DNA from: a virus
Lineage: Duplodnaviria > Caudoviricetes
Direction: 5' to 3' (one strand)
Virus record (IMG/VR): IMGVR_UViG_3300008050_000051
Location: 1-54,209 of that record
Length of the DNA stretch: 54,209 nucleotides
Part shown: piece after piece, positions 3,252 to 12,571 of the stretch
How the letters are laid out: each line of letters opens with the position of its first letter
How positions within the stretch are numbered: the first letter of the stretch is position 1
The notes under the pieces: generated by a model
What the model was told of the DNA's origin: nothing
Seen by the model: the letters and a program-made list of their open reading frames with translations, nothing else
Databases searched by the model: none
Position numbers and translations under genes: made by a program

Positions 3252-3589
3252 TGTGCTATAGACCATTACCCGATAGCCTAACAATCAAAAAGTCAAGAAT
3301 AGAGGGATTAGGACTGTTCGCAAAAGAATTTATTAAAAAAGAAACAGAACTAGGAATCTCCCATTACTACTTTGAAGATGATTTGATTAGAACTCCACTA
3401 GGAGGGTTTTATAACCACTCAGATGCACCAAATTGCTACTCTAAAACAAAAGTTACCGAGACAGGAATAGATGAGGTAATCCTAATCACAGGAAGAGATA
3501 TTCAAGCAGGAGAAGAGATTACAACCTACTATATCATACAACCACTACCACTACCTAATCATGACAAAAAACACGCCATTTCAAAATGA
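3251..3589 (+). CDS. SET-domain protein (putative lysine methyltransferase)
   Basis: SRIEGLGLFA, GFYNHSDAPNC and RDIQAGEEITTYY are canonical SET motifs; ATG 3251 overlaps upstream TAA. Confidence 0.85.
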   Translation: MCYRPLPDSLTIKKSRIEGLGLFAKEFIKKETELGISHYYFEDDLIRTPLGGFYNHSDAPNCYSKTKVTETGIDEVILITGRDIQAGEEITTYYIIQPLPLPNHDKKHAISK

Positions 3590-5204: not shown

Positions 5205-5849
5205 TTAGTGTGAGAGAAACCTAACTGTTTTCGATACGCTCCAACATAATCCACAAGCTGCACAGCTTGCGGACTTTTCAGTTTGTTCCGGGCAGACAAA
5301 AGACTTGCCCTCGAATGATTCCTCGGCTGCGTAGAGATTAGATCCAGTGTACTCTTTTGAGCGGGAATAGCGAATTACGCAACGCTCCGAGAATTTTCTA
5401 TTTAGCTCCTGGATTGCTTTTCCGATTCGGCTTTCTTCTTCTCTACCAGTGTATCCAAACAAACATAGGGAAGAATACTTCCAAAGCATCTCATCCCAGA
5501 AATTCACATAATCCACGCTATAGAAATCACCTAGAACGTGGAGCCTAATTACAATCCCTTGCGGGTGCTTTTTCATTAGGGCTGCAATTTCAATTTCCAG
5601 CTTATCGGTTAGCCCGTTAGTAGAAAACCTATGGGCGAAAGGCATGTTATTACCGTAACAATCTTCCCAATGATGGCAAGAAGGGGGACACGTTTCCCTT
5701 TCAATCAAAGTGAGAGAGAATAGCTTTTTCCCCCTCCATTTCTTAGATGTAATCTTGAAACCAAGCTTCTTATTATTAGAGCCTTGCTTCAAGATTGTAT
5801 TTCCATCCACGGATCGGATGGATTTCTGAAACCGTGTAGATACTTTCAT
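5205..5849 (-). CDS. Gp88-like Cys-rich protein (radical-SAM-related, putative Fe-S)
   Basis: TCPPSCHHWEDCY, IRLHVLGDF, CPEQ...CAACGLCW; start placed at ATG 5849, 6 nt after a TG-N-TATGCT -10. Confidence 0.65.
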   Translation of the reverse strand: MKVSTRFQKSIRSVDGNTILKQGSNNKKLGFKITSKKWRGKKLFSLTLIERETCPPSCHHWEDCYGNNMPFAHRFSTNGLTDKLEIEIAALMKKHPQGIVIRLHVLGDFYSVDYVNFWDEMLWKYSSLCLFGYTGREEESRIGKAIQELNRKFSERCVIRYSRSKEYTGSNLYAAEESFEGKSFVCPEQTEKSASCAACGLCWSVSKTVRFLSH

Positions 5850-5915
5850 TAGGGTAGCATACCACACTCACGGCCAAAATGGGGGACTAATCCGAGAAAA
5901 GTTCAGAAAGTAGTT

Positions 5916-6031
5916 GTCGTAAGTGCTTGTCCTGTATAGACTTAGGGCCCCGGCCCCGGCGATTTTTGTAAAATCTATGTAAAAAGCCCCCGCTGTTACC
6001 AGCAGGGGCCTAATATATAAATAGTTATAGA
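5916..6031 (-). repeat. cassette junction repeat R1 (core plus terminator half only)
   Basis: Core TAAGTGCTTGTCCTGTATAGACTTAGG at 5920-5946, then GC box, TGTAAAA pair, hairpin 5981-6010. Confidence 0.95.
5981..6010 (-). terminator. intrinsic terminator carried by junction repeats (also in R2 ~7310-7339 and R4 ~10328-10356)
   Basis: Minus strand GGCCCCTGCTG-GTAA-CAGCGGGGGC-TTTTT. Confidence 0.75.
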
Positions 6032-6282
6032 GGTGGAGAGGCTAGAGTAGCGGGACTCACTTTATTACCCGCACCCCATGACAAGCTTCTACGGTGCTTG
6101 CAACCTATGAAACTGTAGTTCATTTCATGAGGCGTTACCTGTGTTTGGGTTCTCTGTCACATTAGACCGTCTTAGGGGTCTCCCCCTTCTCCCTTGTACA
6201 GTTATCCGAGGATACCCTCCAGTTACCGAGGGCATTACCTGATACTCTACTCCAGAGGTTTGCAACCCTCTGAAGTCTCTCC
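6032..6282 (-). ncRNA. candidate ~250-nt structured non-coding RNA
   Basis: No long ORF; terminal pairing GGAGAG/CTCTCC and TAGAGTA/TACTCTA; GNRA-capped hairpins (GCAA, GTAA, GAGA); lies between the mini-tmRNA and the terminator. Confidence 0.55.
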
Positions 6283-6297
6283 GTGTTTTCAATGTGC

Positions 6298-6378
6298 TGG
6301 TGGAGGTGCAGGGAATCGAACCCTGGTCCTAACTAGTTCCCCATGGGGTCTTAGCTAGTCGAACACCATATCACCCCC
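6298..6378 (-). ncRNA. minimal tmRNA-like RNA consisting only of the tRNA-like domain (81 nt)
   Basis: GGGGGTG-ATATGGTGTTCGAC...GAC-CAGGG-TTCGATT-CCCTG-CACCTCC-A-CCA; G3-U70 wobble, A73, encoded CCA, no D-stem; helix 2 closed by a short hairpin. Confidence 0.8.
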
Positions 6379-6455
6379 GAAGGGTGCCCCTTTTCCCGTA
6401 GGGGCCACACGCTTTCTTTTTAGTCGGTCAGGGGCTACCGTCCCGACTCAGAAGC

Positions 6456-6695
6456 CTAGAATCCTTGCGTAGCAAGATATGCCCTTGCATGACCTATATG
6501 CCGCTCACCCTTGCCGTTGTGTTCGAAGGGAAGCGCACGCCGTAGAGATTTGTACGCTTCTAACGCATGATCTGCGGCTTCCATGTTATCAGTTCCTGAG
6601 CGGTAGAGTTCTGCGTAGAGTTCTCCAACTTCAATACTTAGAGTATGGATTTTAGCTAGGAGGGTGGGTTGAGAAATGTTTTGTGTCTTATTCAT
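6456..6695 (-). CDS. hypothetical cassette protein
   Basis: ORF track; first 50 nt tandemly duplicated upstream. Confidence 0.65.
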   Translation of the reverse strand: MNKTQNISQPTLLAKIHTLSIEVGELYAELYRSGTDNMEAADHALEAYKSLRRALPFEHNGKGERHIGHARAYLATQGF

Positions 6696-6745
6696 TGGAT
6701 TTTAGCTAGGAGGGTGGGTTGAGAAATGTTTTGTGTCTTATTCAT
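6646..6745. repeat. exact 50-bp tandem duplication of a gene start
   Basis: TGGATTTTAGCTAGGAGGGTGGGTTGAGAAATGTTTTGTGTCTTATTCAT at 6646-6695 and 6696-6745. Confidence 0.9.
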
Positions 6746-6944
6746 GGGTGCATTCTACCTCATACTCAGAAAGATGTTCTTTCTTGTAATCTTCCCAGTC
6801 CTCCGCATGACTGGCGGGGTTATCTTCGGAATGATAACCAGCAGAGAATCCAGACGCGAAAGCATCTTCTAGAAGAGTCCGCATTGCCCTAAATGTGACC
6901 CTGAGAAGTTGTTTAGTACTACCTGAAGTGTGTGTCTTATTCAT
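6738..6944 (-). CDS. hypothetical cassette protein
   Basis: ORF track; consensus promoter immediately upstream. Confidence 0.7.
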   Translation of the reverse strand: MNKTHTSGSTKQLLRVTFRAMRTLLEDAFASGFSAGYHSEDNPASHAEDWEDYKKEHLSEYEVECTHE

Positions 6945-7176: not shown

Positions 7177-7360
7177 GTTCTCCAGTATATCATACTATCG
7201 GCAGGATGCAAGCCCCAGCAGAGGGGTATTTAGCTTTTCTTGCAATCCTAAGTGCTTGTCCTGTATAGACTTAGGGCCTCGGCCCCGGCGATTTTTGTAA
7301 AATCTATGTAAAAAGCCCCCGCTGTTACCAGCAGGGGCCTAATATATAAATAGTTATAGA
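7174..7360 (-). repeat. cassette junction repeat R2 (terminator + core + promoter)
   Basis: Core 7249-7275; promoter TTGCAT-16-TATACT-7nt-ATG(7176). Confidence 0.95.
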
Positions 7361-8401: not shown

Positions 8402-8542
8402 GTTCTCCAGTATATCATATTATCGGCAGGATACCAGCCCCAGCAGAGGGGTATTTAGCTTTTCTTGCGGTCGTAAGTGCTTGTCCTGTATAGACTTAGG
8501 GCCTCGGCGCCGGGGCTTTGTGTAAAATCTGTGTAAAAAGCC
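8399..8542 (-). repeat. cassette junction repeat R3 (no terminator hairpin)
   Basis: Core 8474-8500; promoter TGGTAT-16-TATACT-7nt-ATG(8401). Confidence 0.95.
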
Positions 8543-10192: not shown

Positions 10193-10363
10193 GTTCTCCA
10201 GTATATCATATTATCGACAGGATACCACCCCCAGGAGAGGGGTATTTAGCTTTTCTTGCGGTCCTAAGTGCTTGTCCTGTATAGACTTAGGGCCTCGGCC
10301 CCGGCGAATTTTACACAAATTTTACACAAAGCCCCCGCTGTTACCAGCAGGGGCCTAATATAT
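10190..10363 (-). repeat. cassette junction repeat R4 (terminator + inverted TGTAAAA module + core + promoter)
   Basis: Core 10265-10291; promoter TGGTAT-16-TATACT-7nt-ATG(10192). Confidence 0.95.
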
Positions 10364-11073: not shown

Positions 11074-11208
11074 GTGTTTCATCATACTCTATTATCGGCA
11101 GGATACAAGCCCCAGCAGAAGGGTATTTAGCTTTTCTTGCGGTCGTAAGTGCTTGTCCTGTATAGACTTAGGGCCTCGGCGCCGGGGCTTTGTGTAAAAT
11201 CTGTGTAA
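11071..11208 (-). repeat. cassette junction repeat R5 (no terminator hairpin)
   Basis: Core 11146-11172; promoter TTGTAT-16-TATGAT-7nt-ATG. Confidence 0.95.
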
Positions 11209-11479: not shown

Positions 11480-11579
11480 GTGTTTCATTATAATATACTT
11501 ATCGACCAGATGTAAGCCCCAGGAGAGGGGTATTTAGCTTTTCTTGAGGTCGTAAGTGCTTGTCCTGTATAGACTTAGG
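11477..11579 (-). repeat. cassette junction repeat R6 (core plus promoter half only)
   Basis: Core 11553-11579; promoter TTACAT-17-TATAAT-7nt-ATG. Confidence 0.95.
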
Positions 11580-11782: not shown

Positions 11783-12571
11783 ATGAGTAAATTCGGAAAA
11801 ATACCTAGTAACTTCCTATTTGGCAACCCAAATGCACTTTCTGTACCCACACCTGTAGCACAACAAGTAGGTATGGGAGCTAATGTTCAACAAGGTCCGA
11901 CAGGAGGCACGATACCTCCATACATTCAAAGATACACCTACCGCAAACCTAATATAGATTTTTTCTTCTCGGATTTTGAGGTAGAGTTTAATCAATCCCA
12001 TTTAACCCCTGTGAGGATAGAAATATCCACCCCCATGGAGATCACAGAAACAATTGATTTTGAATTGGATTCTAATCAACAGCCTATGGGGTATGGGTGG
12101 GTTCTGAGAGGTCGCCAGAGTAGTGGACTGCCTCCTCTTATAATATTAACCCAACCAGGAGACCCAACTATGAAAGAGTTACGAGAACAGGCTCATCAAG
12201 GGGATGTTCCTGGAGATGTAACCACAACCATAAATGTTAGTAGGCCAGGGGAATTTTCACATAGTCATTTACAGTTTTGGCCTGTAGCTTTTAAAGAAGT
12301 TTGGGGGACGGGGGTAATAGGACATCAAGGCTACAATGACCAGCACTCATTCATTGTGTCCCACATTCTTCAAGATGATCCAGCGGGTAGTGTTAGTTTT
12401 TCCCTTACGGATCCATCGGTTATATCAAGTTTTGTTGGAACAGGGGTGGTTAGGCTTGATTTTTCTTTATACCATTCAGGGTATATTCCAGATTTATACA
12501 GTAGCGTTGGGGCGTGGCTAGTTAGATTTCAGTTTGCTTGTCCTATTACGGTTACTTATTACTATCAGTAG
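11783..12571 (+). CDS. hypothetical protein (possibly virion-associated)
   Basis: 262-aa ORF. Confidence 0.7.
   Translation: MSKFGKIPSNFLFGNPNALSVPTPVAQQVGMGANVQQGPTGGTIPPYIQRYTYRKPNIDFFFSDFEVEFNQSHLTPVRIEISTPMEITETIDFELDSNQQPMGYGWVLRGRQSSGLPPLIILTQPGDPTMKELREQAHQGDVPGDVTTTINVSRPGEFSHSHLQFWPVAFKEVWGTGVIGHQGYNDQHSFIVSHILQDDPAGSVSFSLTDPSVISSFVGTGVVRLDFSLYHSGYIPDLYSSVGAWLVRFQFACPITVTYYYQ

Follow-up and report, generated by a model that had tools for sequence, protein, structure and literature searches.

What is the folded RNA that lies directly behind a message-less transfer-messenger RNA (tmRNA) gene of a marine phage, to which group of RNAs does it belong, and what might it do? The DNA that raises this question, referred to here as the window, is the whole of IMG/VR virus record IMGVR_UViG_3300008050_000051, which has 54,209 bases and a completeness estimate of 48%, and which encodes a terminase, a portal and a helicase. 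It has no near relative among isolated phages (portal identity is at most 35%, the best match being a Microcystis phage, and that of a GP88-like protein at most 39%), and none of 50,697 phage records matches the region by BLAST. On the minus strand, the 3′ part of an early phage transcription unit runs in the order small open reading frames (ORFs), mini-tmRNA, structured RNA and terminator. The structured RNA, of 251 nucleotides (nt) and designated here type A, is very probably a real RNA gene, of a group that also comprises a sister type, type B. A reading made from the letters alone (the sequence-only reading) had seen in it a new class of noncoding RNA or, speculatively, the mRNA-like module that the mini-tmRNA lacks, supplied in trans.

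The limits of the RNA are those that the sequence-only reading had given, with GGAGAG 15 nt past the CCA of the mini-tmRNA, CTCTCC-ACC at the end, and the terminator 20 nt further on. Between them the RNA is built of helix P1, hairpin HP1, helix P2, four arms (HPa, HPb, HPc enclosing HPd, and HPe), the returning strands P2′ and P1′, and an ACC tail. A 255-nt stretch folds at -94.2 kcal/mol, against -75.2 +/- 5.2 kcal/mol for its shuffled versions (z -3.63; none of 200 as good). Homologues were found by scanning for the loop of the last hairpin, which returned 15 stretches; type A as defined here consists of three sequences, those of the window and of loci L146 and L147. The window RNA aligns end to end with L146 (9805-10028; 66% identity) and with L147 (3447-3669, minus strand; 68.5%), and L146 and L147 are 95.5% identical to each other. 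The sequence-only reading had looked to covariation among homologues as the check on its proposal, and compensatory changes are found in 15 of the 63 pairs of the type-A consensus fold when the window is set against L146 and L147; these changes support the fold, and the same architecture appears in the unconstrained minimum free energy (MFE) structures of both homologues.

Most of the helices that had been proposed from the letters are borne out. P1, the long-range helix P2, the GCGGG/CCCGC hairpin (HPe), the helix carrying the GGTAACTG loop and the CCCTC..GAGGG hairpin (within HPa) are all real; the homologues preserve the first three with different letters (Table 1) and keep the GGUAACUG loop of HPa unchanged. 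The P2 core, GAGUA/UACUC in the window, reads GAGCA/UGCUC in L146 and GAGCA/UGUUC in L147, although the single-sequence MFE structure of the window misses this helix (pair probabilities of 0.015-0.049) and a fold forced to include it costs 3.7 kcal/mol (-90.7 vs -94.4 kcal/mol). In HPa, which extends from pair 43-73 to pair 55-64, the changes at 50-69 and 53-66 are compensatory; HPc reads CCUCAUG/CAUGGGG in the window and CCUAGCG/CGCUGGG in the homologues, with compensatory pairs 154-208, 155-207 and 156-206. HP1 in the homologues is formed by UGUCGGGG, a loop GUUCGAAA and CCUCGACA. Two details had to be amended. The first hairpin had been taken for a GCAA tetraloop; read from the sequence, it has an 8-nt loop, GUUGCAAA, that is not cleanly closed. 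The GGGG-GAGA-CCCC hairpin, at 6175-6186 inside HPb, is perfect as proposed and falls in a 13-column gap of both homologues, so that it is a lineage-specific insertion confined to this copy. HPb is also where an environmental variant differs, at 6170-6175; over 300 nt, the variant of the stretch shows 6 substitutions and 33 gap letters. Among the conserved unpaired letters are those of two loops, GGUAACUG and the 13-nt last loop, a ACUACAGUU and a U-N5-AAU after P2. The sole ORF of at least 50 amino acids (aa) on the strand of the RNA in this stretch starts with TTG and encodes 55 aa (6125-6292).

Table 1. Coordinates of the type-A RNA, its parts and its neighbours in the window
Feature	Coordinates	Strand	Description
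Type-A structured RNA, 251 nt	6032..6282	-	GGAGAG (6282-6277) to CUCUCC-ACC (6040-6032)
P1	6277..6282 with 6035..6040	-	GGAGAG/CUCUCC; GGAAGG/CCUUCC in homologues
HP1	6250..6275	-	CUUCAGAGG, loop GUUGCAAA, CCUCUGGAG; directly after P1
P2	6243..6249 with 6043..6049	-	UAGAGUA/UACUCUA, long-range
HPa	6210..6240	-	Outer AGGU/ACCU, inner GCCCUC/GAGGGU, loop GGUAACUG invariant
HPb	6139..6201	-	CUGUACA../..ACACAG around GGG/CCC; pairs 82-144 to 93-133
HPc	6073..6133	-	GCCUCAUG/CAUGGGGU, long-range; encloses HPd
HPd	6081..6101	-	GCAAGC/GCUUGU, inside HPc; three compensatory pairs
HPe, last hairpin	6050..6072	-	GCGGG, 13-nt loop UAAUAAAGUGAGU, CCCGC; abuts P2′; GUGGG/CCCAC in homologues
Mini-tmRNA, tRNA-like domain only	6298..6378	-	RF00023, 67.5 bits vs gathering score 47; upstream, same transcription unit
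Spacer, 15 nt	6283..6297	-	From CCA to P1, read from the sequence; CCA of mini-tmRNA ends at 6298
Intrinsic terminator	5981..6011	-	12-bp stem, GUAA loop, U5; 20 nt past the structured RNA
25-nt repeat	5920..5944	+	TAAGTGCTTGTCCTGTATAGACTTA; start of the next early unit (GP88-like gene, 5205-5867)
GP88/DUF7227-like gene	5205..5867	-	Next early unit
79-aa ORF	6456..6695	-	Precedes the mini-tmRNA; homologues likewise in relatives

The type-A RNA could not be assigned to a catalogued family. As the sequence-only reading had expected, Rfam 15 has no family that reaches its gathering score on the RNA (within the window only tmRNA passes), and a permissive scan of 5900-6500 at E<=10 gave spurious sub-threshold overlaps only. 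RNase P RNA, a group I intron, a Y RNA, a tRNA with an intron and 6S RNA were considered and dropped, none having an Rfam match at E<=10. To our knowledge, the sequence holds none of the conserved elements of these five. Nor was a description of this RNA found in the literature searched, on the tmRNA and phage context and on structured-RNA discovery. A pattern joining the tmRNA CCA to GGAGAG brought up no new type A, a 22-mer from the type-A interior had no match, and a low-stringency BLAST of type A against the loci gathered at that stage found no interior similarity. The stretch 6032-6282 is present in marine metagenome DNA runs of at least 15 studies, so the RNA is no rarity in the sea.

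Type A is one type of a wider, uncatalogued group of marine-phage RNAs and not an isolated class. Of the earlier proposal of a new class, the discrete structured RNA without an Rfam family stands and its isolation does not, since it has kin in type B and loosely resembles the manA RNA. Type B comprises eight full-length sequences, at L012 (identical to L007 and L077), L022, L038, L006, L005, L121, L123 and L127. The RNAs at L012, L022 and L038 have 183-185 nt, lie ~16-23 nt past a mini-tmRNA (the spacers corresponding to the one in the window are ~16 nt in type B1 and ~23 nt in B2), start with GG(G)AGAGAGAG and end with CUCUCUCUCC(C). For three sequences, the RNAalifold consensus has 65 pairs, of which 20 show compensatory change. 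A covariance model, R1, built from B1, B1b and B2, which had been found without any pattern derived from the window, recovers L006, L005, L123 and L121 at 65-99 bits together with two truncated copies, and a pattern for the HPa region of type B finds the known copies and L127 only, and among genomes only the phage contig L128. In an alignment of seven type-B sequences, which was fitted to R1, 92.9% of the cells are paired, against 76.8% in shuffles, and both sides change in 32 of the 65 pairs, against 3-9 with the partners slid. R1 matched one of the 151 genomes of the family of G001, a Prochlorococcus single-cell genome, and the match is the phage contig itself; none of the other 150 has one. 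By this count, R1-type RNA is phage-specific.

The two types have in common a scaffold of a purine-rich P1, an adjacent HP1, P2 and a last hairpin abutting P2′, and they follow the same order of P1, HP1, P2, arms, last hairpin, P2′, 2-4 nt and P1′. HP1 stands in the same place in type B, where 7 of its 9 pairs covary, and the P1 of the window, GGAGAG/CUCUCC, recurs letter for letter in B3-B6. The type-A 13-nt last loop agrees with that of L121 in 12 of 13 letters. On the window RNA, R1 gives no full-length match; its alignment is confined to model positions 144-166 and the last hairpin at 6050-6073, with a score of 8.9 bits and an E-value of 0.77 for the whole window or 0.0041 for the slot that holds the RNA. 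An nhmmer profile of the 3′ module, made from B1, B1b and B2 only, has its top match in the window at 6044-6073 (E 0.015; the next has E 1.3). Unlike the scaffold, the core arms of the two types cannot be aligned by sequence, and type A is 40-65 nt longer.

Among known RNAs, the group loosely resembles manA (RF01745), an orphan riboswitch candidate from marine metagenomes and T4-like cyanophages, which is located in the 5′ leaders of metabolic genes (Weinberg et al., 2010; PMC2864571). Types B1 and B1b receive 25.7 and 24.7 bits from the manA model, whose gathering score is 55.2; the manA RNAs of P-SSM4 and P-SSM2, used as controls, reach 184.1 and 181.6 bits. At E<=10 the model matches neither the window nor four other type-B records, and on the L146 record it matches the last hairpin only (7.8 bits); conversely, R1 on the P-SSM2 manA matches the last hairpin only (6.9 bits, E 0.3), and sequence profiles yielded nothing further that links manA with types A and B. 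The likeness is one of design. The manA RNAs of P-SSM4 and P-SSM2, the two compared, have a closing helix (GGGAG/CUCCC), a multi-arm junction and a last hairpin, GUUGG-UA(AU)ACAG..-CCAAC, that abuts the 3′ closing strand. Like types A and B, they come from marine phages (likely cyanophages), measure ~185-250 nt, and combine a purine-rich closing helix (GGAGAG/CUCUCC in the window), followed at once by U-N5-AAU, with a last hairpin of 5 base pairs (bp) whose loop starts UAAUA or UACA and closes on G-G/C-C. Unlike manA, types A and B have an additional outer P1 and HP1, and they stand at 3′ ends, whereas manA occupies 5′ leaders (before purL in P-SSM2, after pstS in P-SSM4). Given the sub-threshold scores and the shared design, we file the group as manA-like in design and not as a member of manA.

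The last hairpin was aligned in 13 distinct sequences, from types A and B, three other phage RNAs and the two manA RNAs; 65 of 65 cells are paired and three of the five pairs covary, a count that is in part selected, since the new loci were picked for at least four of five pairs. Both closing G-C pairs are fixed, as is the start of the loop. From the 15 pattern matches, L143/L150/L155, L144/L154 and L145 (AT-rich, probably coding) were left out of this alignment. Two more phage RNAs end in the same hairpin, at L148 (~11900-12230; identical to L152) and at L153 (~3300-3515); the latter carries UGACUGAAUAAUG after its closing helix, near the UGACUGAAUAAAC of manA, and receives no score from the manA model.

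The mini-tmRNA upstream of the type-A RNA retains, in its alignment to the tmRNA model, the acceptor stem, D-like loop, P2 and T-arm of tmRNA, and 290 model positions, the mRNA and pseudoknot part, are replaced by 4 nt; it is thus a tmRNA reduced to its tRNA-like domain (TLD). ARAGORN called neither a tRNA nor a tmRNA in the window and so left it uncalled. The sole printed description of a TLD-only tmRNA, to judge by the accessible text of the sources, is that of mycobacteriophage DS6A (PMC4131195; PMC11915505). The window resembles DS6A in having a message-less tmRNA gene in a phage and differs in that a folded RNA follows; for DS6A, the portions of the two papers at hand describe the TLD alone and mention no RNA downstream. 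The terminator that closes the unit has a hairpin of -25.5 kcal/mol (z -6.0; none of 200 shuffles as stable) and does not figure in the list produced by the consensus scan.

The type-A RNA is an optional, exchangeable cargo of the slot between the CCA of the mini-tmRNA and the terminator. Relatives were gathered through the GP88-like gene, giving 9 viral loci and the best 80 of at least 576 confirmed metagenome loci. At the closest of them, L035, the GP88-like protein is 90% identical to that of the window, and the mini-tmRNA, the terminator and the downstream repeat are all the same; it reads CCACCAGCT|TCTATAAC (on the downstream side also TCTATAACTATTT) where the window has ~265 nt more. L035 lacks exactly this stretch, which makes the RNA an optional cargo. 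Environmental contigs with the same flanks likewise part company exactly at 6297/6298 and 6031/6032. A tmRNA-like 3′ end was found upstream of the GP88-like gene at 43 of the 80 metagenome loci, at a distance of up to 200 nt in 24, of 201-500 nt in 15 and of over 500 nt in 4. The longer slots contain a tRNA-Asn (L081, L088) or one of several unrelated folded RNAs without an Rfam family. One of these, of ~90-150 nt, has a closing stem, starts near GGGGACAUACU and ends near GUCAAGUCC; it lies behind the mini-tmRNA at L049, L051, L052 and L055 and upstream of it at L022. Another, at L105 (~1300-1420) and L012 (~2735-2860), with variants at L057 and L061, has a closing helix, GAGGAG/CUCCUC, and a conserved GUAAGA-capped hairpin whose stem covaries (AUCG/CGAU vs UGC/GCA). 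Neither has an Rfam family.

What precedes the RNA varies as well. The sequence-only reading had called for its co-occurrence with the mini-tmRNA to be checked, and it is found in part: a mini-tmRNA precedes the type A of the window and types B1 and B2, but the type A of L146 stands behind a pistol ribozyme (43.3 bits), of which there is none at the window copy, and L035 has the mini-tmRNA without the RNA. In L005, L006, L121, L123 and L127, type B comes after a small ORF, and in all four of the records scanned with Rfam (L005, L006, which is identical to L129, L121 and L127) a pistol ribozyme lies between this ORF and type B. The match to the pistol model stops ~6-12 nt ahead of the type-B P1 (L006/L129, L121, L127). 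The type-A copies of L146 and L147 are placed behind a pistol ribozyme, as are several of type B; in L005 and L006, type B is 2 kb away from the mini-tmRNA. All full copies found adjoin the downstream side of an element that defines an RNA end, be it a mini-tmRNA or a pistol ribozyme, and a terminator-like hairpin follows every type A or B copy whose downstream flank was seen. At L157 (1501-1843, and on to ~2070), a tRNA is followed by a full-length, one-piece tmRNA (129 bits) with its own ANTSYSLAA-type tag frame and, at once, by a B-like RNA that has the same last hairpin.

The surroundings of the unit are those of an early region, on the minus strand at 5.2-11.6 kb, with a G+C content of 0.45-0.51 against ~0.38 elsewhere. 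Six identical copies of the 25-nt repeat TAAGTGCTTGTCCTGTATAGACTTA occur in it (5920-5944, 7249-7273, 8474-8498, 10265-10289, 11146-11170 and 11553-11577), and the corresponding pattern has 7 matches where 1.11 are expected. Every copy is preceded by a G+C-rich run and lies ahead of a minus-strand early promoter, and relatives have the same layout with a version of the repeat of their own (four copies in L006, for example). The repeat looks like an operator or an early-promoter module. The GP88/DUF7227-like protein of the next unit has an invariant TCPxSCHHWEDCYGxNM motif and is very common in marine metagenomes (the at least 576 confirmed relatives mentioned above); copies of its gene mostly have a promoter and next to no leader. 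No Pfam family matches the 79-aa ORF, whose start-codon region is spanned by a ~53-bp tandem duplication at ~6640-6750, either real or an assembly artefact. Two hairpins lie between the stop codon of this ORF and the mini-tmRNA (6379-6455, minus strand); the second ends with CACCCUUC just ahead of G1 of the mini-tmRNA, an ending that recurs in many relatives, and the 6379-6455 stretch alone folds no better than shuffles (z -0.39). As to the host, L006 is the same 130,604-bp phage contig as L128, which is filed under a Prochlorococcus single-cell genome; this filing hints at a host for the phage group and is to be read as a hint only.

What, then, might the RNA do? In our best explanation, which we hold tentatively, it is a processed, partner-binding accessory RNA. 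It would be cut free of the early transcript, here by the tRNA-type 3′ processing of the mini-tmRNA and elsewhere by pistol cleavage; once freed, it would work as a folded RNA that binds a partner, either a small molecule or a protein, as suspected for manA, and its role would be an accessory function in host takeover, outside trans-translation. Several observations weigh against this account or against the kinship on which it builds. Type A numbers just three sequences, two of them 95.5% alike, so that a single divergent comparison supplies essentially all of its covariation. The type-B model fails to align type A over its whole length, which leaves the kinship of the two types resting on P1, the last hairpin and the common architecture; a pattern taken in part from type A was used to find B3-B6, so that their likeness in fixed letters is not independent, and an nhmmer profile of the 5′ module of type B finds nothing in the window. 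Three of the 11 records with type A (the window) or type B showed no tmRNA, all of them fragments that are 20-55% complete. The contigs of the single RNA run that we examined do not cover 6032-6297, and we therefore infer the expression and processing of the element. Finally, no partner was found: the Ro60 (TROVE) gene, looked for as the mark of a Y RNA, is absent from the window, itself 48% complete, and from G001, and SmpB was found on a host contig only.

The alternative that survives best would make the RNA a cis-acting, riboswitch-like sensor, in which a metabolite is sensed and controls either the terminator 20 nt downstream, with read-through into the GP88-like gene, or the 3′ maturation of the mini-tmRNA. 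We consider it unlikely. The likeness to manA, itself a riboswitch candidate (PMC2864571), in the closing helix, the multi-arm junction and the last hairpin speaks for it, as do the manA scores of types B1 and B1b, but membership of manA fails by score, and manA resides in 5′ leaders, at the opposite end of the transcript from the RNAs described here. The terminator-like hairpins downstream are consistent with such a sensor as well; read from the sequence, however, the terminator and P1 of the window do not overlap, so that no mutually exclusive pairing is evident, the gene downstream has an operator-like repeat and a promoter of its own, and the genes that follow vary among contexts. A precedent comes from the OM43 phage Melnitz, whose tmRNA gene is reported to carry a glutamine riboswitch in its 3′ part (PMC9004378). 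As in the window, a structured RNA, of the sensing type in Melnitz, comes right after the tRNA-like part of the tmRNA gene in a marine phage; the two cases differ in that the Melnitz RNA belongs to the glnA family, which has no match here, and in that the Melnitz tmRNA is described in that text as a two-piece molecule with a tag frame.

Quite unlikely, in our estimate, is a passive 3′ trailer, a structure that has no activity of its own and serves to keep 3′ exonucleases off the mini-tmRNA and the mRNA upstream or to guide the processing of both. Such a role would suit an RNA that is always at the 3′ end of its unit, between a processing element and a terminator, and that is swapped for other folded RNAs or missing altogether. 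The unit is already closed by the terminator hairpin, however, 24 of the 43 relatives do without any cargo, and mere bulk has no need of conserved unpaired letters such as those, named above, of the two loops, ACUACAGUU and U-N5-AAU.

A new self-cleaving or otherwise catalytic RNA is very improbable. The thought is suggested by the pistol ribozymes that immediately precede type B and the L146 type A, and the work that led to pistol, hatchet and twister-sister reportedly turned up new ribozyme classes beside known ones. Against it, no ribozyme family matches the element, which at 185-250 nt is larger than the small self-cleavers; no conserved letters stood out as a candidate cleavage site, and there is no pistol at the window copy. 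Scarcely credible, finally, is a split tmRNA, in which the RNA would be the missing mRNA-like module supplied in trans to the mini-tmRNA that it adjoins in the same orientation: the 24-codon frame that had been noticed after AUAACU|G (6199-6125) exists but is not conserved, no frame being common to A, B1, B2, B3, B4 and B5, its peptide, as had been conceded, is not ssrA-like and ends in ..NTGNAS, unlike tags, the resume region lies within helices backed by covariation, no tmRNA model matches inside the element (the RF04321 match, at 22.6 bits vs 47, owes its score to the mini-tmRNA, through its T-arm and CCA, and to a GGGGGAGA present by chance), the mini-tmRNA is kept without the element in L035 and in 24 of the 43 relatives, type B lies 2 kb from the mini-tmRNA in L005 and L006, and the B-like RNA of L157 stands behind a full-length tmRNA with a tag frame of its own.

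The tempting reading of a mini-tmRNA that receives its message in trans from the neighbouring RNA is thereby removed. The window and L035 constitute a natural pair of near-identical phages, one with the RNA and one without, in which its function could be tested. The position of the RNAs at 3′ ends, behind end-defining elements and exchangeable, favours a free-standing RNA over a leader. For manA, an orphan since 2010, types A and B offer related yet distinct RNAs with an architecture backed by covariation. A further idea, which we regard as a long shot, is that types A and B, perhaps with manA, belong to a single superfamily of phage RNAs, sensors or effectors, with a functional link to the ribosome-rescue mimic; the idea is based on their occurrence directly 3′ of mini-tmRNAs, with one B-like copy 3′ of a full-length tmRNA, in several lineages. 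If it were true, these RNAs may gate the release or the activity of the tmRNA mimic by binding a metabolite or else a factor of rescue or processing, and manA-type RNAs would be modules acting in trans or from the 3′ side, with a constant scaffold of P1, HP1 and last hairpin around an exchangeable core.

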